DNA of 43,803 bases from a phage, in assembly GCA_018167155.1 (NCBI GenBank), contig GCA_018167155.1_4332.1; one strand, written 5' to 3'. The first letter of the stretch is position 1. Each line of letters starts with the position of its first letter. This document shows positions 7,282 to 42,377 of this stretch, in pieces. The position numbers and the translations under genes were made by a program. The notes beneath the pieces were generated by a model. The model was not told the origin of the DNA, ran no database searches, and saw only the letters and a program-made list of their open reading frames with translations.

Positions 7282-7354
7282 TTGATATGTGAATAGTACC
7301 ATATTAATTATTTTATAAAAGCACATTGACATGTGAATAGTTCGCTATTATAGT
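7282..7354. promoter_or_regulatory. Divergent control region with two copies of the AATAG-N4-CTATT operator-like palindrome
   Basis: Copy 1 AATAGTACCATATT at 7292-7305; copy 2 AATAGTTCGCTATT at 7336-7349 inside TTGACA(7326-7331)-N17-TATAGT(7349-7354), which drives the + gene at 7386. A minus-strand TACTAT over copy 1 may serve the XRE gene. Confidence 0.55.
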
Positions 7355-10170: not shown

Positions 10171-10199
10171 TTGACACCTGAATAGCGAACTATTATAGT
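10171..10199 (+). promoter_or_regulatory. Sigma70-like promoter TTGACA-N17-TATAGT with AATAG-N4-CTATT palindrome in the spacer
   Basis: TTGACA 10171-10176, TATAGT 10194-10199, palindrome AATAGCGAACTATT at 10181-10194. Confidence 0.6.
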
Positions 10200-14492: not shown

Positions 14493-14796
14493 AGAGGGCC
14501 GCGTACAGAAATACGCAAAAGAGCGATTCGAGGCCATTGGTGGCCTCGTTCGTAAACTTTCCTACGAAAACAGACGCGCAGCGATGGATTTGTTAGTGGT
14601 CCTGCCCGGCGGCATCATCTGGTTCGTCGAGATTAAGAAAGACGAAAACACGAAGCCAGACCCGCACCAGCTACGGGAACATGAGAGATTCCGGAAACGT
14701 GGTGCGAATGTTTTTGTCGTTGGTTCGTTTAAACAGGTTGACACCCTAATAGCGAACTATTATAGTCAGCCCTACACCAACAATATAAGGAATTGA
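14482..14796 (+). CDS. VRR-NUC domain nuclease
   Basis: 104 aa; DLLVVLPGGIIWFVEIKK...QLREHERFRKRGANVFVV matches the VRR-NUC PD-(D/E)XK pattern. Confidence 0.6.
   Translation: MATKEGRVQKYAKERFEAIGGLVRKLSYENRRAAMDLLVVLPGGIIWFVEIKKDENTKPDPHQLREHERFRKRGANVFVVGSFKQVDTLIANYYSQPYTNNIRN
14738..14766 (+). promoter_or_regulatory. Sigma70-like promoter TTGACA-N17-TATAGT with AATAG-N4-CTATT palindrome, inside the 3' end of the VRR-NUC gene
   Basis: TTGACA 14738-14743, TATAGT 14761-14766, palindrome AATAGCGAACTATT at about 14748-14761. Confidence 0.55.
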
Positions 14797-17223: not shown

Positions 17224-17253
17224 GAAAAGGCCCCGTTTGGGGCCTTAGTTTTA
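17224..17253. terminator. Bidirectional terminator between convergent operons
   Basis: AAAAGGCCCC-GTTT-GGGGCCTT followed by TAGTTTTA; flanked by T/A runs in both orientations. Confidence 0.65.
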
Positions 17254-20217: not shown

Positions 20218-22773
20218 TTAATTAAAACCATTGCTGAATCCGTCGGAGAAACCGCTGCCGTATGGCGCGACGCCGTCGTATTTATAGAATCCGTCGTCAT
20301 AGTTGTAGCCAGTAATCTTGACCGTGCGGTCGTCGCCAGGGTCGATTGAAGAAACAACTATCTTCTGAGCATTATGCCTTGCTTCGTTGCCGAATGAAAA
20401 CTCAGTTTTTAGCGCACTATTCCCCGTGTAGATTGCCTCCTCCGGCGCGGAGAGCATAATCACTTCGCGGTCGTGGCTTCCTTTGATAACAGAGATACTC
20501 TGCACAGAGCCGTCGCGCTTCTTAAGAATGATGGAGTGGTCGTCCCCGGGAGTAAACGTAACAGGCTGTGACAGCGTCAGCGTAAGCCCGTTAACGTCAA
20601 CAACATAACCATCTTGCGGGGCGATGCGGGAGCCTTTAACTACGCTGATTACACCGCCGGGTGTAGCGAGAGCGCCTTCTTCTGTAGCTTCGAACTCTAC
20701 GACAACTTTACTTAACGCATTGCGCTGATAGCGACGCCGCGCCAGCCAGTACGCCTGCTGATAGTTACGCACGCCTTTCGATTCGTACTCCTCCGTGTTT
20801 GCGCCGAGTTCTTCCGGGATATAAATAGTTTCCTGTACGTTAGTATCCGGGTCAATGTACGAGAACGACAGGCTATCGTAGGTCGTAGAATCATTAAACG
20901 TGCGGGTCCATTTCTCTGTACCAGTAGTTTTGCTGCGGTGAGTGAACACCATCTCGGGCCCTGCAACCGGGCGGTCGAAGCGCAACATAATATCCGCGCC
21001 TTTACGGTACGCGGTACAGAACACGGCTTCGGCTATAGTCTGAACGATGTCCTGCATCGTGGTGTCGTAATCGTCGAACGTGTAGCAGAACTGACCTGCT
21101 AATTCGCTGCCAAAATAGGACTCAATTTCTTCTTGCACGGCAAGCAACTTATCCATGTTTGCCGTTGTCAGTTCCAGATTACCCACCACCGGGTCGCGAG
21201 CCAGTCTGATTAGCGACTGCACCGCTTGAGTATTTGGGGTCATTACTGTATCGAATACCCCATTGCCTAAGTATTTGTAGCACATCTCTGTCGCGATCAT
21301 GCGCAGTTCCGGGTTGTCGATACTGGCTGCACGCGGTGTCTGTTTACGGGCACAATGTACGGTAGTTCGGTTGCCGTAGTGCGGGGTTGTGTCCAGAGAC
21401 TGCCCGTACAGGTTAATGAAGGTTATCTCGTCGCTTACCGTTCCGTCGTAGTCCTTGTCGAAATTCGTTACACGGCGCATACGGGCGCGGAAACGCGATG
21501 CAGTAGGCAACTGCCCGTAGATAGACGTACCGACGTAATCCGTGCTATTACCAGTAATCGTAGCACGTACCGTGTAAATGTCGCTCAACGGGTTACGCTG
21601 AGAGTCAATCATCTGGTACTGGAGTTCTACCGTTACGCTGGTGCGATTATAGCCGCCGTCATATTTGTAGAGGCCGTTTTGCCCTGCAACGTTAGCAAGC
21701 ACACGGTCAACTTCCCCGCGCACCATGTAATACCAGTCGGTCAGGGATACGTCATAGGTGTTGCTCGGGCCGATAAACGTATCTGAACGCTCTGTTAGCG
21801 TGTACGTCTGCCCGCTAGTCAACGCGGCCCAGTTAGACGCCCCGTTTACGGCTAATCTTACTTCGAAGTCGTCAACGTATAAAACCTCAAACGAGCCGTT
21901 CAGGTTAGTGACATCAGTAACGTCAAAGTTGCTCAACACCGCGACATCACCGACGCTAAGAAACTCAGAAAAAGCAGAGTCGCCGGACGGGTCATAAATG
22001 TAGCCGGTGTTTGAAATACGTTTGGCTGTGCCGTCGGCGCTTGGGTTAGCCCCGATGTCGTTTGGCGCTTTCAGTACAATACCGTCAACGTCGTCGTTGG
22101 AGTATGTCACATAGAGTTTCTGGTCAATGACGTCGCCGATTTGTAGTTGCGGCGATGCGGTGTTGTTCGGTGACGTGTACGGTGCATATACAGCAACAGA
22201 GGAACCGGTGATGTCGCTTATCAGGGTATCGCCTTCCGTGACGCCATCAGACTCGATATGCAGATGCCCGCGCCCGGCATCATAGTACGAATACTCCAGC
22301 AAAGCACCCGTGGAGTTGAACGCCTTATACGTCTGCATCAGGTCGTTAGGGATTGTCTGCACAGTCCCGCAGATGTCATAAGAGCGCTCATAGGGGCGCG
22401 GCTTGTTGGAGCGGTCTGTGAGACTGTTATTAGGCGATGTTGTCTGGTTGTTAGTCGCCGTGTAGTTGGCGTTGGTGGCCGTGTTCAGACCGAACAACTT
22501 GGCAATTGGCTTAAGGATAAAACCGAACACCTTACTAACTGCACCGAGCGCCCCGCTACCGGCGCCCTCAATAATGTGGTACACGGCGTCTTCGTCTTTG
22601 AGTGCGTCGAAGTCGTCGGTGACATCAGTATCATCGCCAATCTCGCCCAGGTAGACGCGCACCGGCACGCCGTCCGGGATACGGTTAACGACAAACTCCA
22701 TCGGCATCCCGACGTGTTTTGTACGGTCGAAAGCTCCATCAGCGTTTCGCGTGTAGTGCAGGATTATCGCCAA
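20218..22773 (-). CDS. Central tail / host-specificity protein (gpJ-like)
   Basis: 851 aa, last large gene of the tail module before the tailspike; call is by size and synteny. Confidence 0.5.
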   Translation of the reverse strand: MAIILHYTRNADGAFDRTKHVGMPMEFVVNRIPDGVPVRVYLGEIGDDTDVTDDFDALKDEDAVYHIIEGAGSGALGAVSKVFGFILKPIAKLFGLNTATNANYTATNNQTTSPNNSLTDRSNKPRPYERSYDICGTVQTIPNDLMQTYKAFNSTGALLEYSYYDAGRGHLHIESDGVTEGDTLISDITGSSVAVYAPYTSPNNTASPQLQIGDVIDQKLYVTYSNDDVDGIVLKAPNDIGANPSADGTAKRISNTGYIYDPSGDSAFSEFLSVGDVAVLSNFDVTDVTNLNGSFEVLYVDDFEVRLAVNGASNWAALTSGQTYTLTERSDTFIGPSNTYDVSLTDWYYMVRGEVDRVLANVAGQNGLYKYDGGYNRTSVTVELQYQMIDSQRNPLSDIYTVRATITGNSTDYVGTSIYGQLPTASRFRARMRRVTNFDKDYDGTVSDEITFINLYGQSLDTTPHYGNRTTVHCARKQTPRAASIDNPELRMIATEMCYKYLGNGVFDTVMTPNTQAVQSLIRLARDPVVGNLELTTANMDKLLAVQEEIESYFGSELAGQFCYTFDDYDTTMQDIVQTIAEAVFCTAYRKGADIMLRFDRPVAGPEMVFTHRSKTTGTEKWTRTFNDSTTYDSLSFSYIDPDTNVQETIYIPEELGANTEEYESKGVRNYQQAYWLARRRYQRNALSKVVVEFEATEEGALATPGGVISVVKGSRIAPQDGYVVDVNGLTLTLSQPVTFTPGDDHSIILKKRDGSVQSISVIKGSHDREVIMLSAPEEAIYTGNSALKTEFSFGNEARHNAQKIVVSSIDPGDDRTVKITGYNYDDGFYKYDGVAPYGSGFSDGFSNGFN

Positions 22774-23641: not shown

Positions 23642-24138
23642 TGCATCGGGTCCCAAATTCGTGGAAACGTTGATTGTGCAGTTCCGTAGGCTTTAAGGAA
23701 ACACCCCAGCCCGTCACCATAGCAACCGTACAAATCCGGCAGATTGTTAATCAGGCACTGGTTCTCAAGATCCTGGAACGGCGATTTCTCAGCGGTTGCC
23801 GTGAAAGTAATTGTCCAGTTAATCCCGTCTTCGGTGGACTCAGCGATGGTTGACGTGATTGTTACCTGGTAATCCTCGATACCCATGCCGAAGTCATGTG
23901 CCATCCAGAAACTTGACGCACCGCCATCGACTTTCTCAAGGAACGACAGAAACGCCTGCCGCCCTAGCGCCGATGTAATCAGGGTTACGCTTATCGGGAA
24001 CACGTCGTAATACGTGTCGCGCCCCTGACGTACACCTCCGCCAGCTAAATCGACGCTCCAGACGTTGTTACGTCTGGTCATTGAGTAGCCTTTTGACACC
24101 ACCGGCTTAAGGCTACGTGGGAAATATAAGTCGCTCAT
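23638..24138 (-). CDS. Minor / distal tail protein (gpM-like by position)
   Basis: 166 aa, immediately downstream of the tape measure gene. Confidence 0.45.
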   Translation of the reverse strand: MSDLYFPRSLKPVVSKGYSMTRRNNVWSVDLAGGGVRQGRDTYYDVFPISVTLITSALGRQAFLSFLEKVDGGASSFWMAHDFGMGIEDYQVTITSTIAESTEDGINWTITFTATAEKSPFQDLENQCLINNLPDLYGCYGDGLGCFLKAYGTAQSTFPRIWDPMQ

Positions 24139-24183
24139 TATTTGAACCTCGATAGATTGGATATTAACCTAACACCCATATTA

Positions 24184-26456
24184 TCACTTAAAGCCTGGTG
24201 CGTTTCTTGTAGCCTTCCTAGCTTTCGATATTTTGCTGTTACTATTCTGCAGCGAAGCAGCAACTTGTTCCTCTATGATGATACGCAAACGGCCTTCTTC
24301 GTCCTGTTCAACGCTGGTGTTGCCAATTTGTGCGCTGGTGTTATTTATAATGCTGATATTGGCCGGCCCGGTACCGCCGCCGTTCTGCCCCATAATTTCC
24401 TTCATCTGCTGTGCTGTGCGTACACGAGACGCGCCAGCTGGCATGATAACTTCTGGTTTACCACGTTCGGCGATAGTAGAAGCCTGCCCCGCAGATAACT
24501 GACCGCCTTGTTCACGGGCGGACCTGATAGCGGAAATCTGCGCCATACCAGCCCCAACGGCAGCAGCAGCGGCTACAGGTGCCAGGAACGGACCAACAAC
24601 AGGGATAGCGGCCGTTGACTTATACGCTTCAATAGCTGCGGTGTACGTGGCGATAGTGGCCTGTACGATAGCGAATGCCTTATACGCGCCAGAAGCCTCG
24701 CCCAACGCGGACCCGATATTTGAGGCCATGTTACCAAAGGCCGTTGCCGTTGCCTCAGCACGCTTGGTGGCGTATTGCTCGTTGATGGCGTTAAGTGCCG
24801 CTTGATACTGTTCCTCTTTAATCAGACCCTGCTCGCGGTACTTATCAGCTACCGCCAGTTTCTGCTGTTCCTGGATATCGAGAAGCTCAAGCTCCGTGGC
24901 ATTCTGGCCCATAATTTGAGCCATGAAGTCGTCGCCTTTCTGCTGCTTTTCCTGGGCTTCTTTCTGACGTTTATCCAGTTCATCTTGCCGTTTTTGCCCT
25001 GCTTCAAGGACAATAGCCGTTTTTGCTTGCTCGTATTCTTTCAGAGACAACGCGCCCTGGCTGTAAAACTCTTTTGCTTTAGCCAGTTTCTGCTGTTCCT
25101 GGGCGTCAATAGCCTTTAACTCGTCGTTGTTCTGACGGGCCAAAGTGTCGAGGTAATCTTGCGCCTGATTGCGCAATTGCTCCGCCTTCTTAGCGGCGGC
25201 TTTTGCCGCTTTATCGTCGGCGTTTCCGGTGCCGCCAGTTCCGCCCTTTTTATTAACAAGGCTGGCTAAGTCAATTTCTTGCTTCTTGCGCTCGTCATAC
25301 TGCTTGCGCTGTTCCTCAATTTCTTTCTTACGCTGCTTAGACCTGTCGGTAATGGCCTGGGATTCCGCCGCTGCGCGTTTTATGCTGGCGGCGTATGCGG
25401 CGTCAGCCTCTGCGGTCAGGTTTTTAAATGTGAGCGCTGCCGTTTTGCTCGGGTCAAACACATCAGCAAGGGTCTGACCTAACGCTACAGCGTAATCGTC
25501 AATGCGCTGGAACCACGCAATAACCTCGTGGAACGTCTGCTGAATGTCAGGCAACCACTCACGGATAGCATCAGGTATAGCCCCCAGCGAGTCTGACATA
25601 TCAACGGATTTGTCCTCGGTGTCGTATGCCAGGTCATTCAGGGCATCAGAAATAAACTTGAACGATTCATTGAACAGTGTCACCCAATCCTGGAGCGTGG
25701 CTGCTATCTCATTAGACGCTATGGCGTCGGTGAGTGCCGCGATAGCATCTTCCGCTCTCGCGGCTTGCTCACCTACGGCGTCACCAAAACCGGATTGCGC
25801 TACCGCAAGAACAAGACCATCGAAGGAGTCGGCGAGGCTCGACAACTGGCCATCTAAGGTCTTCGAACGCGTCTCCATAGCTCCGGCGAAATCAGTGTTG
25901 CCGATGTTTAGCAGGTATTTCTGAATCTCTTCGGAGTTCTTCTTAACGGTAGTCGTTACGCCGCGGAACGTGAACGAAACGGTATCTGCCTGTTGGGAAG
26001 ACTTAATGCCGAACTCTTTCAGCCGCTCAAACTCAAAGGTACTGGCGTCAGCCACAGCCTCAATCATCTGATTAAGGTCTTTACCCATAGCCGCCGCGGT
26101 GTTGCCGTAGGAGATTAACGCCTCTTTGCTGGGATTCAGGCCGAGGGCTACAAGTTTAGTGAAACCCTCTACCGCCTGATTGAGGCCATACGGGGTTTCT
26201 TTTGCGAACTGTTGCAGGACGCTGAAAGCCTTAGCCGCGTTCTCGGCGCTTCCGGTCATTGTGATGAGGCCGGAATTCAGCTTATCGAAGTTGCGCTGAG
26301 AGTCCACCAGCGCACTGAACACCTGTTTGGCGGTTTCCAGACTGACAATGGCAGCCGCGGCAGCACCTGCGGCTTTGGTAAGCCCGTTCAGTTGTGATGT
26401 GGTTTTATCGACGCCGGTCGAAGATACTCGTACTATCAAGCTAGCGGTATCAGCCA
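24184..26456 (-). CDS. Tail tape measure protein
   Basis: ORF track 24184..26472; about 757 aa, Ala/Gln/Glu-rich helical low-complexity sequence, follows the G/T chaperone pair. Confidence 0.85.
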
Positions 26457-26782
26457 TGATTTCTACCTTCAAAGATTGCTTCTAAGCCCATGATAATGTC
26501 TATCTCGAACAGGCTAAGCTGTTTTTGCGTAACATCGAGATAGGCTTTCAGGTCTTGCCACGTAACGGATTCTCTTGCAAACAATACTACAGCGTCCTCG
26601 CGCACGTGTCGCGTAAACTTAATGTCGCAATACGTCTCAAAGGTGGATATAAAAAGGGGCGGGCATTCTGGCCCACCCCGTCGCGCTGCACGTTTTTTCT
26701 TATCGATTACACCCATCGCGATAAGCGCCTGTTCGTGCCCGTCAGCTATAGAATCAAACTCTCTGATTTTATGCTTATCCAC
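26450..26782 (-). CDS. Tail assembly chaperone, gpT-like frameshift extension
   Basis: 110 aa ORF in the -1 frame relative to the upstream G-like gene; that frame stays open upstream across the G stop. Confidence 0.5.
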   Translation of the reverse strand: MDKHKIREFDSIADGHEQALIAMGVIDKKKRAARRGGPECPPLFISTFETYCDIKFTRHVREDAVVLFARESVTWQDLKAYLDVTQKQLSLFEIDIIMGLEAIFEGRNHG

Positions 26783-26814
26783 AAACTCGTAGGTGGCGAA
26801 CCTGTACAGCGCGT

Positions 26815-27231
26815 CTACTTTTCCTGTAATGCTTTGCGCTCAGCGTTATGGAACGCAGCTACCTGTGTGCCTAATGCCTTGAACTGGTCGAGCAACTTGT
26901 TAAACGCTTCCTTAGAGAAGGGCTCATCAAAGCTCCAGCCGTTTACAACTTCTGCTGCAAGTTGCCGGTTGAGGTCTTCCGCCAGTTCGTTAACCGCCAG
27001 GTTATATTCAGTATAGTCGCCGGTTTCTTTGGCGGCTTTTTCCAGTTCTTCAAAACGCGCCAGTCCGCGACGGTACGCGATAATGAAAGCACGCCCCGCT
27101 TTAACGGCGACATCCGCATCCGGGCTTACAACATTAAGCCATTCCCCCGAGTCTTCACCATTCGGCAGGAGAATCGGCATCTTCTTGCCTACCAGCGCTT
27201 TCTCTTCGAAATAAAAATCAGAAAGTTTCAT
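26815..27231 (-). CDS. Tail assembly chaperone (gpG-like)
   Basis: 138 aa acidic protein just upstream of the tape measure gene; candidate slippery site GGAAAAG before its stop. Confidence 0.6.
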   Translation of the reverse strand: MKLSDFYFEEKALVGKKMPILLPNGEDSGEWLNVVSPDADVAVKAGRAFIIAYRRGLARFEELEKAAKETGDYTEYNLAVNELAEDLNRQLAAEVVNGWSFDEPFSKEAFNKLLDQFKALGTQVAAFHNAERKALQEK

Positions 27232-27338
27232 TCTTTAATCCTTTGGTTAAGAGGTTACAGGTTAAGGAAAATGCGCCAGACGGGAACCACCCGCTTTTCG
27301 TGTGCGACACTAGGCGCAAAATTATTCTATCACATTAC

Positions 27339-27367
27339 TTGCACACCCCAATATAATAGGGTACTAT
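27339..27367 (+). promoter_or_regulatory. Sigma70-like promoter TTGCAC-N17-TACTAT with AATAG-N4-CTATT palindrome
   Basis: TTGCAC 27339-27344, TACTAT 27362-27367, palindrome AATAGGGTACTATT at about 27355-27368. Confidence 0.6.
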
Positions 27368-27396
27368 TCACTTACACCAACAATGAGGGGTTTAAA

Positions 27397-27588
27397 ATGT
27401 CAAGTTTACCAGTTTCCTTAATCCTGTTTGCACTTCTCGCCTATTTCGCACCTTTCCTGGTTGCATATTTCCGTAACCATAAAGCGAAGTTGGCGATATT
27501 CATGGCCAACCTGTTTCTCTGTTGGGTTCTGCTGCCGTGGGTATTTATTTTAATCTGGGCGTGCAACTCGAATGTTAACGAGAAGTGA
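27397..27588 (+). CDS. Superinfection immunity (Imm-like) small membrane protein
   Basis: 63 aa; YFAPFLVAYFRNHKAKLAIFMANLFLCWVLLPWVFILIWA matches the Imm_superinfect pattern as I recall it. Track ORF 26962..27588 is a longer frame; the ATG at 27397 follows SD GAGGGG. Confidence 0.55.
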   Translation: MSSLPVSLILFALLAYFAPFLVAYFRNHKAKLAIFMANLFLCWVLLPWVFILIWACNSNVNEK

Positions 27589-27626
27589 GCTAGTATAGGA
27601 CAAATCCTAAACACGAGGAAGTAAGC

Positions 27627-28757
27627 ATGGCCCGTAAGAAAATAACCGACGAACAGTTACAGGAAGAATTGAACGCCGGAATGAAGAATATCGATATAGC
27701 CCGTAAATACGGCATCTCAGACCGCGTTATTCGTATCCGTAAAGCGAAGCTGGCAAAGAAAGGCGTAGGCCACGGCCGCGACGTCAGCCACCTTGTACCG
27801 GACGGCTACAAGATTAAAGGCACGTCGTCACTGGTGGACGAGTTCGGCAACACTAAGCTGCAATGGGTTAAAACCGACACTGACGCCGAACGTCAGGTCG
27901 AGTTGATGAAAGCCGTAATCGAAGGCATGAAGTCAGAGATTACGCCGGTTGCGCCTGTTAAAGCTGCACGCGTCAAACGCGACGATAAACTACTCAATCT
28001 TTACACTGTATCTGATTTCCATCTCGGTATGCTGGCCTGGGCCGACGAGAGCGGCGACGACTGGGATATGAAAATCGCGGAAGACCTGTTCTCTCGTTGG
28101 TTCGACGCGGCGTTTCAGAAAGCGCCAGATGCAGGAACAGGGGTTATTAACCTGCTGGGCGACTTCGCGCACTTCGATAGTCTGGATGCCGTTACCCCCG
28201 AGTCGCGTCATGTGTTGGACGCAGACACTCGCTACCAGAAACTGGTGCGCTACATGATTCGTATGGTGCGCCGTGTTGTTGATATGGCGCTGGTTAAGCA
28301 TAAAAATGTCCGCTTGCTCATCGTGCAAGGGAACCACGACGAGAGCGGAATGATTTGGTTGGCTGAGATGTTTAGCACTCTGTACGACAACGAGCCGCGT
28401 GTGTTCGTCGATACGTCGCCGGATGTGTACAAGATGGTGCAACACGGCAAAACGACATTGTTCTTTACCCACGGACATAAAGCGCGCTTCGACGCTATCG
28501 AACCGGTTATGATTGCCAAGTTCCGCAAAGCGTTTGGTGAGAGCGTTTACAGCTACGCCCACGTAGGACACCTACACCATCAGAAGATTGTAGAAAGCCG
28601 TAATATGATTGTTGAGCAACACCGCACCTTAGCGGCTAAAGACGCCTACGCCTCCCGCGGCGGATGGATGTCAAGCCGCAGTGCAAACGTAATTACTTAT
28701 AGCGCCGAATATGGCGAGGTTGCACGTTTAACTATTTCACCGGAGATGCTGGGATGA
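27627..28757 (+). CDS. Calcineurin-like metallophosphoesterase with N-terminal HTH-like domain
   Basis: 376 aa; ordered motifs SDFHLG (DxH), GDFAHFD (GD), QGNHDE (GNH[DE]), THGH, GHLHH (GHxH); N-terminal KNIDIARKYGISDRVIRIRK looks like an HTH. Confidence 0.65.
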   Translation: MARKKITDEQLQEELNAGMKNIDIARKYGISDRVIRIRKAKLAKKGVGHGRDVSHLVPDGYKIKGTSSLVDEFGNTKLQWVKTDTDAERQVELMKAVIEGMKSEITPVAPVKAARVKRDDKLLNLYTVSDFHLGMLAWADESGDDWDMKIAEDLFSRWFDAAFQKAPDAGTGVINLLGDFAHFDSLDAVTPESRHVLDADTRYQKLVRYMIRMVRRVVDMALVKHKNVRLLIVQGNHDESGMIWLAEMFSTLYDNEPRVFVDTSPDVYKMVQHGKTTLFFTHGHKARFDAIEPVMIAKFRKAFGESVYSYAHVGHLHHQKIVESRNMIVEQHRTLAAKDAYASRGGWMSSRSANVITYSAEYGEVARLTISPEMLG

Positions 28758-28984
28758 CTTCAAAATACAACCGAACAATGACAAACACTCACGGCAGCAC
28801 TATGACCGTAGACGTTTACGATGTTCTCCGTGCATTCGACATCCGTGACCCCGCACTACAGCACGCATTGAAGAAACTATTGTGTATGGGTCTTCGCGGG
28901 CACAAGGACACCGGAACCGACTTAGCGGAAGCAATTGAAAGTCTGGAGAAGTTACGAGAGTACCGTAGTAATATAGATGAGTAA
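28754..28984 (+). CDS. Hypothetical protein
   Basis: 76 aa, ATGA-coupled to the phosphoesterase gene. Confidence 0.45.
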   Translation: MTSKYNRTMTNTHGSTMTVDVYDVLRAFDIRDPALQHALKKLLCMGLRGHKDTGTDLAEAIESLEKLREYRSNIDE

Positions 28985-28991
28985 GAATGTA

Positions 28992-29150
28992 ATGAAAACA
29001 ATATACGTAATCCGCGTATATGACGAAGAATGGGATGAGTGGGTTGGTATTTATGCTGTTGGTAGTAAGGAAGAGGCCTCGAAAGAAATGACAGAACGTA
29101 GTAACCGAGGTCAGTTAACTAACTTCTATGAAATGCCATTCAAAAGTGAG
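28992..29150 (+). CDS. Hypothetical small protein (hand-called, 52 aa)
   Basis: Reads MKTIYVIRVYDEEWDEWVGIYAVGSKEEASKEMTERSNRGQLTNFYEMPFKSE; ends 5 nt before the terminator. Confidence 0.3.
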
Positions 29151-29154
29151 TGAG

Positions 29155-29183
29155 AAAAGGCCCCGTTAGGGGCCTTAGTTTTA
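29155..29183. terminator. Bidirectional terminator (strong on minus strand after the tail tube gene)
   Basis: AAAAGGCCCC-GTTA-GGGGCCTT-AGTTTTA, a near-identical copy of the element at 17224. Confidence 0.7.
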
Positions 29184-30353
29184 GGCGTAACTAATACGCT
29201 GGATGACAATAGATGACTGGTACTGGTTGCCTGTGGACTGCCCTTCTATACTTTGAGTAATTGATTCCGGACCAGATATTTCTGGTGTAACAGCCGTAAG
29301 TTCGGCGCGTTTCAAACTGAAAGACATAGCCCCGTTTACCCCAGCCAGAATAGAGTTAATCTCTACCTGCTGTTCGTTGATAAACTTCTGAATCATAGCC
29401 ATATCGTACAGCTTACCGGAGATGGAGAAGGTGTTAGCTGCGCGGCTACGTTCCACAAACGCAACGTTAGAGTTGCCGAGTTCGAACTGTGCGGACGCGC
29501 TGTTGTCGTTGGTGATGGTAAGGCTATCGCAACGCAACGGGGTAGAACCGTCGAACACAGAAACGTCGACCGAGGAGAACGGCTCATCACCAAACGTAAC
29601 GGAAGAGAAGTCAGAACCAGACGGCGCCGCGGTGAGAATCTCCTGGCTGCGACCGATGAACGGGAAGCTGCCCGTTACCATCGCGTTAACGGCCTGCTCA
29701 ACGGTAAAACCAGAAACTTCCACGCCTTTGGTTAACGTGTACGCGTCAGTCCCGCCGCACTGGCCTTTGTACCAGGTGAGGATAGAGAACGTCTTACACG
29801 CGTTACCAGTTTCCAGTTTGTCGCCGGTCTTAGCCGCAGTAGTGGCAGTCTCTGTGGTGAGGGTGTGCTGAATGCCCGCACCGGTAACTACCAGTGCCTC
29901 TACCGAGGTAACGATAAACGGTTTTGCGTTGTCGCCCGTCAAGTCGGTAAACGCAATCAGGTCACCCACTTCAACGCCGTCAGTAATGAAGCTGCCATCA
30001 GCACGAGTGAACGTCTTGCCCGCCGGTGCGACGGTAATCGATAGACTGGACAGGGAAACACCGGATTGCCACGTAGAGCCTAAAGCACCCGCCAGCCAGT
30101 CGTCCTGGCTTTTCGAGCTAAGCTCGATCGCGTATTCACCGCTAACCTGTTTGTTACCGGTGCGGATGGATGTAGTCTCACGGCTGCCGTCCAGTTCGTT
30201 GGATGTCAGCGTGTCTCGGGTAATAGCAGGAACGCCACCTGTGTTACGCAACGGCGACCATACCGGGTTAGTCGGTGTTACGCCCGGGGTGACTTCCGCC
30301 ACATAGAATTGCGCGGTAGTCGCGCCCTTAAAAGGAGTTGTAGCCATATTCAC
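29181..30353 (-). CDS. Major tail (tube) protein
   Basis: 390 aa Thr/Ser/Gly-rich protein upstream of the chaperone and tape measure genes, followed by a strong terminator. Confidence 0.65.
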   Translation of the reverse strand: MNMATTPFKGATTAQFYVAEVTPGVTPTNPVWSPLRNTGGVPAITRDTLTSNELDGSRETTSIRTGNKQVSGEYAIELSSKSQDDWLAGALGSTWQSGVSLSSLSITVAPAGKTFTRADGSFITDGVEVGDLIAFTDLTGDNAKPFIVTSVEALVVTGAGIQHTLTTETATTAAKTGDKLETGNACKTFSILTWYKGQCGGTDAYTLTKGVEVSGFTVEQAVNAMVTGSFPFIGRSQEILTAAPSGSDFSSVTFGDEPFSSVDVSVFDGSTPLRCDSLTITNDNSASAQFELGNSNVAFVERSRAANTFSISGKLYDMAMIQKFINEQQVEINSILAGVNGAMSFSLKRAELTAVTPEISGPESITQSIEGQSTGNQYQSSIVIQRISYA

Positions 30354-30763
30354 AGCCTCTTGGTGAATGCAATAAAGTTAATTGACAATGGTCTTTTGGC
30401 CCATCCGTTTTCTACAATCAGCGGCCCCAGGCTAACCGATTGAACCTCGGCGCAGATGTCGTTACGTGAAAATGACTTACCTGCTTTAAACGCCGTGTTA
30501 AGTAAGTCTGCCATTTTATTGATTGGCGCGCTACCTTTCACCGATGCGTAGTTAATATCCACCTGATAGACGCCAGAGCGTTGTTCCGTGAAGAATAAGT
30601 CAGCCTGCTCGGTATCCGCCAGCAACATGTAACTTGCCAGATACGGCGTATCTGTTGACGTCGGCGCGTCGATGTTTTCAAGCGCTACCTTGATGCCGTT
30701 GGTTGTTCCGAAGGATACCAGCGGCACGTCAAACGCTTTTGTTAAGTCCTCAAAGTAGCCCAT
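30350..30763 (-). CDS. Tail terminator / tail completion protein (by position)
   Basis: 137 aa immediately upstream of the tail tube gene, ATGA-coupled. Confidence 0.4.
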   Translation of the reverse strand: MGYFEDLTKAFDVPLVSFGTTNGIKVALENIDAPTSTDTPYLASYMLLADTEQADLFFTEQRSGVYQVDINYASVKGSAPINKMADLLNTAFKAGKSFSRNDICAEVQSVSLGPLIVENGWAKRPLSINFIAFTKRL

Positions 30764-31158
30764 TATTTCACCTTGTTGGCTTCTTCGTTAATTAGTTGCT
30801 GGAAGCGGGACACGTTAGTCCTGACCATCCCGGCGGGGGCCTGTTGTGACCAACCGTACTCCAGCCGTTGCGCATACGGCAGGTTATTAGTCAGCGTGAA
30901 CTCGCGCCAGTCGGTGTCTTTCAGTACGAAACTTGTAGCGTTTCCGATAGCTATGTTTCCCGATTTATCGGTGGCGTCTGTAGTTCCGGAGGAAGGGGCG
31001 CTGCCAGACGCCATCCAGTTCATACGAAAGCGACCCGTATCTACCGGACTCGCCTTTATAATAGCGGAAAACAGCTTGATAGACACCTGACGCATCACCT
31101 TCTCAGGGTTCTTCTTCGCCTTTTCCACGAACTTAGAGACATCAAGCGCAAAACTCAT
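30763..31158 (-). CDS. HK97 gp10-like neck / tail completion protein
   Basis: 131 aa; PVDTGRFRMNWMAS resembles the DTGxLRxSW core of the HK97 gp10 family. Confidence 0.5.
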   Translation of the reverse strand: MSFALDVSKFVEKAKKNPEKVMRQVSIKLFSAIIKASPVDTGRFRMNWMASGSAPSSGTTDATDKSGNIAIGNATSFVLKDTDWREFTLTNNLPYAQRLEYGWSQQAPAGMVRTNVSRFQQLINEEANKVK

Positions 31159-31514
31159 TTTCTCACCTGAATAAAGTAGGCCACGACATCATCGTTAACC
31201 ATCTTCTTCTCAATGGCTACGACAGACCATTGCTCGCCACCGTATTGTACCTTGTCTTCCATCTTAGGAACGACGCTGCAATCGGCTTTAACAATCATGT
31301 CCCCCGCCTGAATCGTCGTACCGTTCACCAGTCCAGCGTTTACCGGAACCGGAACAGCCTTCAACGGCAACACTTCATCCGCAGACCAGACGTACTCCCC
31401 CAGAACTTCATCCCACACTTTCGAGCCAGCGCGAACCAGAGATACCGTGCTACCGAATTTGGTTAACAGGCGCGTACCTACGCCTTGCATACGTTTACTG
31501 AAAGCGGTGCTCAT
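31155..31514 (-). CDS. Head closure / head-tail joining protein (by position)
   Basis: ORF track 31155..31568; internal ATG at 31514 abuts the upstream stop. Confidence 0.4.
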   Translation of the reverse strand: MSTAFSKRMQGVGTRLLTKFGSTVSLVRAGSKVWDEVLGEYVWSADEVLPLKAVPVPVNAGLVNGTTIQAGDMIVKADCSVVPKMEDKVQYGGEQWSVVAIEKKMVNDDVVAYFIQVRK

Positions 31515-32128
31515 CAGGCGGCCTCCAGTCTCGAGATAACCAGTAGCGCAGATGGCGCGGTACCCCATGAGGTTACAGTAGCTGCTTGTGGGTATACTCC
31601 GCCGAAGTCACTCCCGGCGCTGTCCCGCATAATCTGAACGGCAAAAGTCTGGCCTGCGGTCGTGTTAATAACAACGCGAGACTCAATCGGGATTGTCATG
31701 TCGGCGCTGACTAGTTTTGTAGCTGCGGGAGAGCCGTACTGGGCACCGTTCAGGAGAATGCGTGATAGCAGGATAGAGGTCCCGCTGGCCCCTGTGCGGC
31801 CCGCCTGTAACTTGACGCGAACGGCATAGCTACCCGCTGTGTTGAACGTAACCAGCCCCGCGGCATTAATCATCACGGGGTCAGATGCGCTTCCCTGAGC
31901 AGAGCCGAACGATACCTGCAACGCCGTGTCCACTGCGGTAGGCGCTTGTGCCACGGTTGCCGCGGCACGGAGAACCTCAACCTCTTTCACCCCAGGAGTG
32001 GCGTAAATAGGTGAGTCCGCCATCTGAGTCATTACCTCGCGTAGCTTCGCGGGTGTAATAGCTCCGGTGGTGTTATCTGGGAGATTCGCACCGATAAGAG
32101 TAAACATCTCTGTTTTAGTCTTCGCCAT
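31514..32128 (-). CDS. Virion structural protein, hypothetical
   Basis: 204 aa Ala/Thr/Gly-rich protein in the neck region. Confidence 0.45.
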   Translation of the reverse strand: MAKTKTEMFTLIGANLPDNTTGAITPAKLREVMTQMADSPIYATPGVKEVEVLRAAATVAQAPTAVDTALQVSFGSAQGSASDPVMINAAGLVTFNTAGSYAVRVKLQAGRTGASGTSILLSRILLNGAQYGSPAATKLVSADMTIPIESRVVINTTAGQTFAVQIMRDSAGSDFGGVYPQAATVTSWGTAPSALLVISRLEAA

Positions 32129-36538: not shown

Positions 36539-36564
36539 TAAGGCCCCATAACGGGGCCTTTTAT
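36539..36564. terminator. Terminator hairpin between convergent genes
   Basis: AGGCCCC-ATAAC-GGGGCCT followed by TTTTAT; identical stem to the element at 38641. Confidence 0.65.
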
Positions 36565-38112: not shown

Positions 38113-38141
38113 TTGCAGACACCAATATAATAGGGTACTAT
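38113..38141 (+). promoter_or_regulatory. Sigma70-like promoter TTGCAG-N17-TACTAT with AATAG-N4-CTATT palindrome
   Basis: TTGCAG 38113-38118, TACTAT 38136-38141; the promoter-to-SD sequence is nearly identical to the 36236 promoter. Confidence 0.6.
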
Positions 38142-38167
38142 TCAGTTAACTTAAACAGGAGATGAAA

Positions 38168-38329
38168 ATGGTTACTTTGATTACTTGGGAACACGAAAAT
38201 AGTCAACCTGAAACGCGTGAATTCGAAACTGTAGCGGCTTGCTACCGCCTGGCGTCAGGCGGATTCTATAAATCACAGATTGTAAATGAGTTTGGAGTGG
38301 TGGATTATGAGTTTACGAAACAATCTTAA
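38168..38329 (+). CDS. Hypothetical small protein (hand-called, about 53 aa)
   Basis: ATG 6 nt after AGGAG; reads MVTLITWEHENSQPETREFETVAACYRLASGGFYKSQIVNEFGVVDYEFTKQS. Confidence 0.35.
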   Translation: MVTLITWEHENSQPETREFETVAACYRLASGGFYKSQIVNEFGVVDYEFTKQS

Positions 38330-38651
38330 GAACCACTTGAAGGTCTACGGGCCTTATGGCTTGCATTCATGGAACGGTGGGTATGACGTAAACGATGACC
38401 TGCCGATACGTAAAATAGCACGCGCGGCGCGACGCAATGTAAAGCCGGGTGACGTGCTAGTCATACGAGATAATAATGTCATTGTTGAGGTTGAGAAAGT
38501 TCATGGCATGTTTCTCACAGTAATACCTGTTGATGTTGCTTTGCGTGACGCAAGGCCCTACCGAGAAGCTGGGGGTGGTAAAACTGGTAAATACACATAC
38601 GGCAGGATTGAGATACATAAAACACATCTTGATAAAGTTAAGGCCCCATAA
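38307..38651 (+). CDS. Hypothetical protein
   Basis: ORF track 38286..38651; internal ATG at 38307 after GGAGTGGTGG; 114 aa basic protein. Confidence 0.5.
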   Translation: MSLRNNLKNHLKVYGPYGLHSWNGGYDVNDDLPIRKIARAARRNVKPGDVLVIRDNNVIVEVEKVHGMFLTVIPVDVALRDARPYREAGGGKTGKYTYGRIEIHKTHLDKVKAP

Positions 38652-38664
38652 CGGGGCCTTTTTC
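38641..38664. terminator. Rho-independent terminator between the plus cassette and the portal gene
   Basis: AGGCCCC-ATAAC-GGGGCCT followed by TTTTTCTTT. Confidence 0.7.
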
Positions 38665-40150: not shown

Positions 40151-41422
40151 TTAAAGTGCGAAAGTCACCGGGACGTTAATAACTGGTTTGCGAATCGGCA
40201 TTTCATATGCAATTGGGTATGTGGTTCCGTCATTCTGGTGGTCCACGCCGCCAGATTTATCCGGTTCGCCGTTCTTGTCGTAAGCCTGTTGCTCCAGGCA
40301 TCGCGCCGTAACTGGGCAAGCCTGTTCATTAATCATGACCATACCAGATTCAAGCGCCTTATTCATCGCCGATACGCGGTCTTTAACCGGCGGGTTTGTC
40401 GATTTAGCGCGTACTTCGAAACCGGCCTGCTGTAGCTGGGCGATGTCTGAGGTACTGGCGTTGTTGCTTTTACGGTTTTTGCCGCTGGCGTCCGGGTACA
40501 TAACGATATAGTGGCCCTTACTTTTCCAGCGTTCAGTTATAGCCCGCACTACATCCGGCGTATCGAACATATCAACCAACTCGGCAACAGCGTGCCACAC
40601 CTTCCCGCGTTGCACGTAAACTGTGCTCGCCATGTGACCTACGTTAAAGTCCTGCCCGATATACAGAGTCTCGCCAGGCTTGATTGTTTCGCGACTACTA
40701 TTTTTCCTGCGGTCGTAAGCGTAGTAGACCGTCCCAGCCGTGAGGTTCACGAACTCGCCGTTGATGTAGGCGTCGATCAACTGACCCGGGTATGTGTCGC
40801 GTAATGACTGCACATAATCTTCTGGCAGGAACGGGTTAGACAGGGTAGATGCCTGAATCATCTCGTAGCCTGGATTCTTTTTTACTACCCAGCGGTCATG
40901 TACGAAACGGAACCCTTCCGGCGTAGTGAACACGGAAACGGTATTAGCCGGTTTCGGCGTAATAGGTTTATACGTCCGCGGTAACTGGCGGTTACGGGCG
41001 ATTACTTTGTTCCACGCGTGCTCAGCGTGTTCCATGTTAAGGGTGTCCAATTCGTCGATTTTTGCACGAAACGATTCGTAGCCAACTATTCGTGCTGGAT
41101 TATCGAGTGTACGCAGGACAAAATCCCCGAATTGTCCTGAAGACGTATATATTATGTTGTCTGACTTGTTGTATTTGTACCGGATACCCCAGTCCGTCAG
41201 CTTCTCTTCCATACGAGGCGCAAGGATAAGACGTACCAGGTCGTAGGTAGGCTCGTACATGGCGATGATAGAATCGCTACCACCTTCCATACTGTCCAGT
41301 AGCGCGGAGTTGCACATAACCTCTGATTTCCCGGTGCCGAAGCCAGCTACGAACGCAGGGAACTTGCAATGCATACCGAGAAACGCGCCTTGCGGTTCTG
41401 TCGCCGTGATATTAACGTTCAC
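40151..41422 (-). CDS. Terminase large subunit
   Basis: 423 aa; Walker A FVAGFGTGKSE near the N-terminus, acidic nuclease-like C-terminal region; GTG start with AAGGTG SD. Confidence 0.8.
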   Translation of the reverse strand: MNVNITATEPQGAFLGMHCKFPAFVAGFGTGKSEVMCNSALLDSMEGGSDSIIAMYEPTYDLVRLILAPRMEEKLTDWGIRYKYNKSDNIIYTSSGQFGDFVLRTLDNPARIVGYESFRAKIDELDTLNMEHAEHAWNKVIARNRQLPRTYKPITPKPANTVSVFTTPEGFRFVHDRWVVKKNPGYEMIQASTLSNPFLPEDYVQSLRDTYPGQLIDAYINGEFVNLTAGTVYYAYDRRKNSSRETIKPGETLYIGQDFNVGHMASTVYVQRGKVWHAVAELVDMFDTPDVVRAITERWKSKGHYIVMYPDASGKNRKSNNASTSDIAQLQQAGFEVRAKSTNPPVKDRVSAMNKALESGMVMINEQACPVTARCLEQQAYDKNGEPDKSGGVDHQNDGTTYPIAYEMPIRKPVINVPVTFAL

Positions 41423-41921
41423 CGGGCACCACCTTAATCGTTACTTCACTGATTGGCTCGTCGCGTACTTCTTCGGCGGCAACTGTTTTATTCAGTCCCA
41501 GCTTCGCAGCAGCAAACGTAGCGGAGATGCCCGCAGCCCCTGTCTCGGTGAAGTATGCCTCTTCCAGCGCCTGTGCTGTTTCATAGGCTTCTGCAAATGC
41601 GGGGATCTCACGCAGCCACAGCTTAATAATCGGGATAGTGACGCCGATGTGTAAGGCAAAGCGGGCGAGTGATGGTGGTTTATCCTGAATCAGTGGGCGT
41701 TCGTCACCTTTGGACGTTGGCACAAGCTCCCACGACGTGCGGTCGAAGAACTCGATTAACGCGTCGCAATAGTCCGGGTCCCACAACGCGGCGGAATTAC
41801 GGGATGATTGGTAAAGGCTCTGTTTACCGCGCGGCCGTCTGCGGCGACGGTTTGCGCTAACAGCTTCTTCATGTGCAGCTTGCACCACCTCTGGCGATGG
41901 CTGCTTGAGTTTCAGCTTCAT
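41412..41921 (-). CDS. Terminase small subunit (putative)
   Basis: ORF track 41412..41960; ATG at 41921 after AAGGGGA; basic N-terminus, overlaps the TerL start by 11 nt. Confidence 0.5.
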   Translation of the reverse strand: MKLKLKQPSPEVVQAAHEEAVSANRRRRRPRGKQSLYQSSRNSAALWDPDYCDALIEFFDRTSWELVPTSKGDERPLIQDKPPSLARFALHIGVTIPIIKLWLREIPAFAEAYETAQALEEAYFTETGAAGISATFAAAKLGLNKTVAAEEVRDEPISEVTIKVVPGER

Positions 41922-42011
41922 AGAATCCCCTTGCATATGCGTCTGACCATCAGAGCGCATCAGACGCGCCCTGCGCGTCTAAAGGGATTATATAAGGGGA
42001 TTGGGCGGGAT

Positions 42012-42040
42012 GTACAGAAAAGCCCTCAGTAGAGGGCTTG
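42012..42040 (-). terminator. Rho-independent terminator ending the right-end early operon
   Basis: Minus-strand hairpin AAGCCCTC-TACT-GAGGGCTT followed by TTTTCT. Confidence 0.55.
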
Positions 42041-42140
42041 TGTCAGTTATATAGGCCGTGTCGTGGTGCTCTTTTGCCATCGCCGCCGTAATGGTCGTTA
42101 GCCACAGCGATAACCCAGGCGTTAGGGATCACCAACAGTC

Positions 42141-42377
42141 TCATTCCCCGCTCTCCCCTTTAGCAATGCGTTGTTCAGTTTTAGTGATACCCCGGCGCGT
42201 GAATAACACAGGGCTTGTCTTAACGTGCGTCATCAGACGGTTGTTATAAATTACGTGGCGCTCGCAGTTCACGTCTTTGCTGTACTTGGCAATCGTCATT
42301 TCGTTGAGGCCAGTTTGTCGGCATGTCTCCGCCATCGTGCCAAATTCTTTAATCAGGTTCGGAATGCTGGTAATCAT
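42141..42377 (-). CDS. Hypothetical protein (possible HTH)
   Basis: ORF track 42141..42401; internal ATG (MITSIPNLIKEFG...) is the likelier start. Confidence 0.45.
   Translation of the reverse strand: MITSIPNLIKEFGTMAETCRQTGLNEMTIAKYSKDVNCERHVIYNNRLMTHVKTSPVLFTRRGITKTEQRIAKGESGE

Follow-up and report, generated by a model that had tools for sequence, protein, structure and literature searches.

Several described systems resemble parts of the locus considered here. The ompA-type 5′-terminal stem-loops that stabilise Escherichia coli mRNAs need only a stem, and SPP1-type pac regions overlap the promoter and the 5′ end of the small-terminase gene. In the T4 genes e (lysozyme), soc, 49 and I-TevI, the ribosome site is occluded in the long early RNA and a late promoter inside the 5′ arm of the occluding structure relieves this block (PMC3014915, section 29). 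The putL and putR elements of phage HK022 are cis-acting processive antiterminator RNAs of approximately 70 nucleotides (nt) with two stem-loops and a triple helix (PMC9378689). Here, we discuss the region just 5′ of the small-terminase gene, terS, of a Kagunavirus-like phage (GenBank assembly GCA_018167155.1, contig GCA_018167155.1_4332.1). All coordinates refer to the window, that is, the whole stretch of 43,803 nt that was analysed.

We consider it probable, although well short of certain, that at this locus an accessory-gene operon gives way to the packaging operon (terS, terL, portal, and possibly genes beyond), by means of a terminator, a σ70 restart of transcription, a two-hairpin leader, and occlusion of read-through RNA. 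Transcripts arriving from upstream would pass a gene for 33 amino acids (aa) and would mostly be halted at an intrinsic terminator. A host σ70 promoter, with its -35 element within the terminator tail, would restart transcription at approximately 41980. The new mRNA would carry hairpin H1 at its extreme 5′ end, followed by hairpin H2, a free Shine-Dalgarno (SD) sequence, and the AUG at 41921. In read-through RNA, a three-way junction would form around H1 and H2 and mask the ribosome site, while promoter-started RNA, lacking the anti-SD arm, would be translated; terS output would hence depend on this promoter alone. The terminator and the promoter are ordinary. The interest lies in the widespread, uncatalogued, covarying terS leader and the promoter-embedded anti-SD.

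As in T4 gene e, the promoter DNA encodes a 5′ arm that pairs with the SD region, transcripts from the promoter lack this arm, and the predicted outcome is translation of promoter-initiated RNA only. The two cases differ in that the promoter is of the host σ70 type and not a gp55 late promoter, and in that the arms are approximately 50 nt apart and enclose two conserved hairpins, as compared with one simple hairpin in T4. Moreover, the terminator would already block most upstream transcription here. The likeness to ompA-type stabilisers is a stable hairpin within 0–2 nt of the predicted 5′ end, followed by a second hairpin and the ribosome site. Unlike these stabilisers, however, the leader has hairpin tips that are sequence-invariant across clades.

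The two-hairpin leader RNA

The leader and the gene that it precedes comprise the following features.

41962–41980, minus strand: hairpin H1, AGACGCGC-AGG-GCGCGTCT (as RNA, AGACGCGC-AGG-GCGCGUCU), 8 bp, from folding, at the predicted 5′ end of the mRNA

41937–41960, minus strand: hairpin H2, AUGCG-C-UCUGA-UGG-UCAGA-CGCAU, from folding and covariation

41412–41921, minus strand: terS (small terminase), 169 aa, start ATG at 41921, matching phrog_3064 "terminase" (E = 7e-75)

In H2, a bulged C separates the 5-bp lower stem from the 5-bp upper stem, which is capped by a UGG loop, and the SD sequence lies approximately 5 nt beyond H2. An earlier note on this DNA had described a 7-bp stem-loop at 41963–41979, at the predicted 5′ end of the terS mRNA. 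The stem-loop is present, but its stem has 8 bp (41980–41962). Its predicted position agrees with the comparison, in which the conserved AGA(C/T)G that starts H1 begins 6–8 nt past the -10 element in all clades.

The corresponding region of relatives was collected from 50 IMG/VR contigs found via TerS, from GenBank phages, and by scanning IMG/VR with an H2 core pattern, which is present in exactly one copy per contig in 56 contigs. The terminator, promoter and hairpin are conserved and keep their position in all relatives examined. At the 4-fold degenerate sites of terL, this phage and the Cornellvirus-type phage St161 are 33% identical, and neutral sites between clades are therefore saturated. 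Despite this saturation, the H1–H2 stretch is 74–89% identical between clades.

RNAalifold predicts both H1 and H2 from the alignment unaided, and leaves the SD sequence unpaired. In the Guernseyvirinae alignment, 97% of the cells of the full structure are paired, relative to at most 56% when the partners are slid. Compensatory changes replace C-G with A-U in H2, and G-C with U-G and U-G with G-C in H1. Six of the nine H1 pairs have changed on both sides across clades, as have three of the five pairs in the H2 upper stem, which is 100% paired. Changes on a single side mostly form G·U pairs (A to G opposite U, C to U opposite G), while on the opposite strand they would give C·A mismatches, which argues that the constraint acts on the sense-strand RNA. 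When the alignment is enlarged by Dhillonvirus and three unclassified clades, both partners have changed in 13 of 19 pairs, a count that has to be read with the caution that the alignment behind it was fitted to the covariance model. In this enlarged alignment, 94% of the cells are paired (at most 51% when slid), and none of 500 shuffles reaches the covariation score. Covariation among the aligned sequences shows the predicted H1 and H2 structure.

Other interpretations were discarded. An alternative pairing, GCGUCUGA/UCAGACGC, is broken by a Jerseyvirus G to U change, whereas H2 compensates the same change. On the same grounds, the direct repeats TCTGATG (two copies with a 10-nt spacing) were dismissed as sites for a binding protein. 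Two further ideas, namely loops of the CsrA-type GGA kind and a sigma-dependent pause element (TATGAT in Jerseyvirus and Cornellvirus-type H2), were judged by eye only, and neither feature is conserved across clades.

The leader covariance model has a single match in the window (89 bits). It also matches Cornellvirus-type phages, phiEap-2 and TS33 on the correct strand and directly before terS, three unclassified IMG/VR clades with 24–39 bits, and Dhillonvirus with 21–23 bits (e.g., vB_EcoS_WFI), where TerS is only approximately 35% identical over part of its length. The leader is found in Kagunavirus, Jerseyvirus, Cornellvirus-type phages, phiEap-2, Hafnia phage TS33, the three unclassified clades and Dhillonvirus, in one copy per genome and always directly before terS; the covariance model gave no match before more distant TerS relatives. 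A search of the window for a second leader copy found none, and the 9-mer AAGGGGATT is not enriched (11 occurrences vs 7 expected). Rfam 15 gave no match in the whole window at the gathering threshold and, in a permissive search, only chance-level matches (E > 2) within 41850–42100. A scan for tRNA and tmRNA returned none.

When the H2 core pattern was scanned against a genome collection, the 56 matches were at or below the number estimated by chance for the pattern, and one of them is real. This match (L136 4380–4640, Taishania pollutisoli CZZ-1 scaffold22) is a Jerseyvirus leader sequence in a Bacteroidota assembly, and the scaffold is almost certainly a contaminating phage contig. The record of PSP2-22 (ON886116.1; L052/L056), in which the module seemingly follows terL, was rejected: it is a chimeric UNVERIFIED_ORG record in which Guernseyvirinae terL and terS pieces are joined to T7-like genes and tape-measure gene fragments, and it is unfit for gene-order arguments.

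Many database records start terS at the ATG at 41960, which would turn the leader into a coding N-terminal extension. In favour of this, all clades keep an open frame from 41960 onward, and their indels relative to each other sum to multiples of three. However, in a comparison of Kagunavirus with Jerseyvirus, all six changed codons within 41960–41922 are non-synonymous, while the changed codons just past 41921 are all synonymous. Moreover, the ATG at 41960 is GTG in most Kagunavirus relatives and is absent in other clades, and it is not preceded by an SD sequence, whereas the strong SD AAGGGGA precedes 41921. In addition, position 1 of the phrog_3064 profile aligns with residue 1 of the TerS that starts at 41921. 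The substitution pattern, the GTG, the SD sequence and the PHROG profile are the reasons for placing the terS start at ATG 41921. At the level of the alignment, the substitution pattern excludes a coding extension of terS, and a start at 41960 is exceedingly improbable. Since a 33-aa open reading frame occupies 42144–42043 and terS starts at 41921, the non-coding stretch is 42042–41922 on the minus strand. The regulatory interval proposed in the earlier note, 41961–42140, thus stands where it falls within 42042–41922, but not in 42144–42043, which encodes the conserved 33-aa protein.

Between Kagunavirus and the Cornellvirus-type phage St161, TerS is 34% identical with an N-terminus that cannot be aligned, while TerL is 84% identical at the amino acid level and the leader 81%. 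In this context, terS (41412–41921, compared with 3582–4088 of the relative L057) has the appearance of a swapped or fast-evolving cassette between a conserved leader and a conserved terL.

This replacement of TerS bears on the suggestion, made in the earlier note, that the region holds the packaging site. The conserved hairpins would then be a DNA signal, either a pac site or part of one, that starts headful packaging. These phages do package by a headful mechanism, and the element, like the SPP1-type pac, is a conserved single-copy element directly before terS in headful-packaging siphoviruses. The pac sites of other phages, such as P22 and SPP1, are located within or beside terS. A site recognised by TerS should, however, change along with TerS; unlike the SPP1-type pac region, the element here is unchanged when TerS changes, and it retains its identity between clades even where the TerS N-termini cannot be aligned. 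Furthermore, the substitutions obey the wobble rules of the sense-strand RNA, and compensatory changes keep the pairing. PhageTerm on fBC-Eco01 gave no obvious termini, published PhageTerm runs on these phages report headful packaging without a pac position, and the database records that start in the region were opened there by convention. A packaging site here is thus disfavoured, and we consider it highly improbable. The starts of database records were also tried as physical genome ends and rejected: Sciku was opened before terS by convention, and many records start at the ATG of a long open reading frame.

As part of an RNA that heads the packaging operon, the leader likely protects the 5′ end from decay and keeps the ribosome site open. 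A plain stabiliser or scaffold, however, leaves the hairpin tips unexplained, which weighs against this function as a full account of the leader. The apical G-C and A-U pairs of H2 and its YGG loop are invariant in every clade, and the H1 loop is (A/U)GG in nearly all sequences (AGA in TS33), while the remaining stems covary. These invariant loops suggest an additional partner, which would not be TerS, because the leader is conserved while TerS is swapped.

This feature raises the possibility that the leader is a factor-binding RNA, either a put-like element that binds host RNA polymerase and allows read-through of hairpins and terminators farther along the late genes, or the operator of a regulator of translation, which might be a host protein, TerL, or another conserved phage protein. 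Such a role could coexist with that of an operon boundary. The leader shares with HK022 put that it is phage-borne, in an enterobacterial setting, and that it consists of two side-by-side stem-loops right after a promoter, as putL does. The invariance of the tips, G-A[YGG]U-C in H2 and (A/U)GG in H1, has persisted although the stems covary and neutral sites are saturated, and the leader was kept while TerS was swapped. Strong hairpins or terminator-like sites are also present downstream on the coding strand, at 38660, 36560, 35960, 33569 and 26679. However, the leader model is silent at the HK022 put region (24000–32000 searched): in this one-way test, the best score was 11 bits inside gene O, with none near PL/PR. 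The leader is approximately 47 nt long with 19 pairs, as compared with approximately 70 nt and a triple helix in put, and it heads packaging genes and not early operons. There is no Rfam match, and other promoters may serve the downstream late genes. A factor-binding role is therefore possible but doubtful. In the same tentative sense, H1–H2 might belong to a novel class of phage RNAs that act in cis by binding a conserved component of the host or the phage, such as RNA polymerase (put-like), the ribosome, an RNase, or a global RNA-binding protein.

Terminator and promoter at a mosaic boundary

The gene order on the minus strand is the NinH-like gene (42401–42141), the studied region, terS, terL (41422–40151) and portal (40138–38666). 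Upstream of the leader, the region contains the following features.

42043–42144, minus strand: conserved 33-aa open reading frame (MRLLVIPNAWVIAVANDHYGGDGKRAPRHGLYN), from the list of open reading frames, with a full-length match to phrog_32259 (E = 1.5e-18)

42039–42032 and 42027–42020, minus strand: stem AAGCCCTC/GAGGGCTT of the putative intrinsic terminator, loop TACT, tail TTCTGT to 42012, from folding and comparison

42011–42016, minus strand: -35 element TGTACA (4/6), overlapping the terminator tail and followed by an 18-nt spacer, from a promoter scan

41987–41992, minus strand: -10 element TATAAT, from a promoter scan, conserved

41979–41980, minus strand: predicted transcription start, A 41980 being the 7th base past the -10 element, from promoter geometry and conservation

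The ATG of the 33-aa gene overlaps the TGA of the NinH-like gene (ATGA), and its stop codon is positioned 3 nt before the terminator hairpin. Among relatives, this gene follows differing upstream genes but always keeps the ATGA overlap, and its changes are mostly synonymous or conservative. Homology among relatives starts abruptly at the 5′ foot of the terminator (approximately 42040; the same point in L001–L050), with unrelated accessory genes upstream. From these alignments, the point near 42040 is read as a mosaic recombination boundary.

The terminator that the earlier note placed at 42012–42040 is corroborated. Its hairpin (42039–42020) has an 8-bp stem with five G-C pairs, a 4-nt loop, and the RNA tail UUCUGU, or UUUUCUGU if the last stem base is counted. 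It folds with -15.6 kcal/mol (z = -4.7), and none of 200 shuffles folds as well. In the comparison of Kagunavirus with the other clades, pair 9–18 has G-C in place of U-A in 16 sequences, and pairing is kept in 96% of the cells. A consensus terminator scanner missed this hairpin only because one extra A-T stem pair consumes one T of the tail, and the hairpin has already been annotated or predicted in relatives (the Sciku record, fBC-Eco01 (T23), and Dhillonvirus WFI). A covarying and conserved hairpin with a U-rich tail is, as judged from sequence, an intrinsic (Rho-independent) terminator.

The TATAAT at 41992–41987 and the poor -35 TGTACA (42016–42011) are likewise present as described previously, and together TGTACA-N18-TATAAT matches 10 of 12 consensus positions. 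The -10 element is TATAAT or TACAAT in every clade (TAnAAT, 83–100% identity), while the 17-nt promoter spacer is 18–41% identical, which compares with 33% at the terL 4-fold sites. The -35 TGTACA is invariant in Kagunavirus and Jerseyvirus sequences, and the core promoters of the different clades are as follows.

Kagunavirus and Jerseyvirus: TGTACA-N18

Cornellvirus-type phages and phiEap-2: TTGCCT-N17

Hafnia phage TS33: TTGCTA-N17

Unclassified clades L231 and L214: TTGCCA-N17 (TTGCCA-N17-TATAAT, 11/12)

Dhillonvirus: extended -10, TGnTATAAT

A -35 or an extended -10 element is present at the same place in every clade except L206/L207, where it is weak. The -10 element is kept, the spacer is free to vary, the -35 is solved differently at the same place, and the distance to H1 is fixed; together, these features argue for a real σ70-type promoter. 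Its start would be at approximately 41980, where a σ70 transcript is expected from the geometry and the conservation pattern. Neither the promoter nor the leader is included in the promoter list for fBC-Eco01 or in the annotations of the Sciku and WFI stretches that were examined.

Four Dhillonvirus records (L223, L228, L229 and L230) open at position 1 with the TATAAT of the homologous promoter, probably through a convention copied between records; a source for such a convention was not found.

The weak -35 together with the good -10 had led the earlier note to suggest an activator-dependent late promoter; such a promoter would be switched on late in infection by a phage protein. The -35 is indeed only 4/6 and the spacer 18 nt in this phage. 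Moreover, the promoter lacks the motif TGAATAGnnnnCTATTAT, which is found at at least eight other promoter-like sites of the genome, and the terS promoter is thus in a different regulatory class. A perfect -10 with a 4/6 -35 is, however, normally active unaided. The promoters at the same place in relatives, TTGCCA-N17-TATAAT, TTGCCT-N17-TATAAT or TGnTATAAT, need no activator, the spacer is unconserved, and the sequence above the foot of the terminator, where homology ends, is unrelated among relatives. This leaves no conserved site for an activator. These near-consensus cores in the sister clades speak against the claim; we infer that initiation is constitutive rather than activated, and dependence on an activator is unlikely.

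The 18-nt motif TGAATAGnnnnCTATTAT itself occurs at 2615, 3856, 7292, 7336, 10181, 14748, 27355, 36161, 36252, 38129 and 43773. Its 14-nt palindromic core has 12 matches vs 0.96 expected, of which the match at 21114 may be due to chance. The motif sits within promoter-like sites of two layouts, and the terS promoter is without it. The fBC-Eco01 paper lists this motif as "phage RNA polymerase promoters", but it has more the appearance of an operator for a phage regulator. Three near-consensus promoters, TTGACA-N17-TATAGT (11/12) with near-identical spacers, are located on the plus strand at 7326–7354, 10171–10199 and 14738–14766. They head rightward gene blocks, and their match to the consensus is much stronger than that of the terS promoter.

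Proposed occlusion of the ribosome site in read-through RNA

The proposed occluding helix involves three segments.

41924–41932, minus strand: SD region AAGGGGAUU of terS, the 3′ arm of the helix, from the sequence

41981–41989, minus strand: proximal anti-SD AAUCCCUUU (the last three -10 bases and the discriminator), the 5′ arm, an inverted repeat

41994–42002, minus strand: distal anti-SD AAUCCCCUU in the promoter spacer, Kagunavirus-specific, an inverted repeat

The DNA of the -10 element and discriminator complements the terS SD sequence, such that read-through RNA would hide the ribosome site and promoter RNA would not. RNA initiated at 41980 lacks both anti-SD arms. Read-through RNA is predicted to fold as a three-way junction around H1 and H2 with the ribosome site buried, in both the minimum-energy and centroid folds (z = -3.5). 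In silico, the SD sequence is paired with the -10/discriminator in the minimum-energy fold of read-through RNA in every clade tested, and it is open in the promoter-initiated RNA. The distal anti-SD and the UAUAUA that follows form a 14-nt complement to UAUGCAAGGGGAUU. Both the minimum-energy and the centroid fold of the read-through RNA make use of this distal arm, and several relatives vary in it without compensation.

In the alignment, 93.6% of the cells of the occluding helix are paired relative to at most 72% when slid, and only two pairs have double changes. Among 12 representatives, cognate 5′ and SD segments bind with -7.7 kcal/mol, as compared with -5.6 kcal/mol for non-cognate segments. 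Permutations of the pairing do as well in 4 of 20000 cases, or in 312 of 362880 for nine clades (p about 1e-3). The support that these comparisons give for selection on the occluding helix is moderate.

Another way to account for the junction is that there is no promoter, and that terS is expressed from read-through RNA in which the three-way junction acts as a riboregulator that needs opening or cleavage for translation. This would fit with the long RNA adopting the junction as its minimum-energy fold in all clades and with some covariation in the occluding helix. The TAnAAT at a fixed distance from H1, with its clade-specific -35 or extended -10 solutions, is then hard to explain, as is a conserved terminator 20 nt upstream. 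In addition, the 5′ arm of the helix tolerates uncompensated changes within Kagunavirus. We consider expression without a promoter to be very improbable.

Several observations also weigh against the proposal that the locus is an operon boundary with a promoter and an occluded read-through RNA. Neither the promoter pattern (four sites vs 3.0 expected in a 3.3-kb scan) nor the folding energy of the leader (z = -1.26) is above chance by itself, and the question was for this reason decided by comparison with relatives. The uncompensated variation in the 5′ arm within Kagunavirus counts here as well. In the commonest Cornellvirus-type sequences (St161-type, with a C·A mismatch) and in L214, the helix is weak or mismatched, and the SD sequence has a better partner than the -10 segment. 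Pyrimidine-rich discriminators readily pair with purine-rich SD sequences, and the permutation test retains the effect of slow-evolving lineages that keep an ancestral match. Furthermore, little read-through RNA would need silencing, given the good terminator just before the promoter. Finally, 5′-end, 3′-end and time-resolved data at useful resolution were not found for this phage group. A literature search for transcript or pac mapping in the group likewise found none, and the one Kagunavirus RNA-seq study, which lumps the NinH-like gene with the structural genes and maps no ends, is too coarse to bear on the early-to-late switch that the earlier note placed here. The start site, the efficiency of the terminator and the timing are thus inferred.

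In clades with a TerS that starts with MKIGKAK (L057 3470–3610, L058, L060–L062, L231 and L214), the -35 TTGCC(T/A) and the adjacent spacer complement terS codons 3–6 (AUUGGCAAGGC). This complementarity between the -35 and the terS codons would form a second long-range helix in read-through RNA.

Genome context and biological meaning

Elsewhere in the window, a rightward cassette of two genes (55 and 121 aa; 38129–38660, plus strand) lies between the leftward portal and head-morphogenesis genes and carries a separate promoter-like site. At its end is the hairpin AAGGCCCCATAACGGGGCCTT (38640–38660), which recurs identically at 36540–36560 and in a closely similar form at 17227–17246.

With respect to the terS locus, the 33-aa gene, H2, the true terS start and the complementarity between promoter and SD sequence were all absent from the earlier note. 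The comparison supplies a defined promoter for the terminase operon and gives the correct start of terS, which many database records mis-annotate. It also adds a compact RNA element of approximately 60 nt with strong covariation that is in no RNA-family catalogue. This element also marks a recombination boundary that separates unrelated accessory genes from a swappable terS, which is useful for engineering and comparing these genomes.

Guernseyvirinae and Dhillonvirus belong to the siphoviruses that are most frequently isolated for use against E. coli and Salmonella in therapy and biocontrol, and one of these phages serves as a synthetic-biology chassis. Reports on the timing and dosing of their packaging genes are extremely scarce. 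The proposed mechanism, in which only promoter-initiated RNA is translated, would extend the T4 control logic to siphoviruses driven by host promoters. If H1–H2 indeed binds a conserved component, it would determine how strongly, or how far, the packaging and late genes are expressed in Guernseyvirinae, in Dhillonvirus and in allied siphoviruses of enterobacteria, with the promoter-embedded anti-SD as a second lock.

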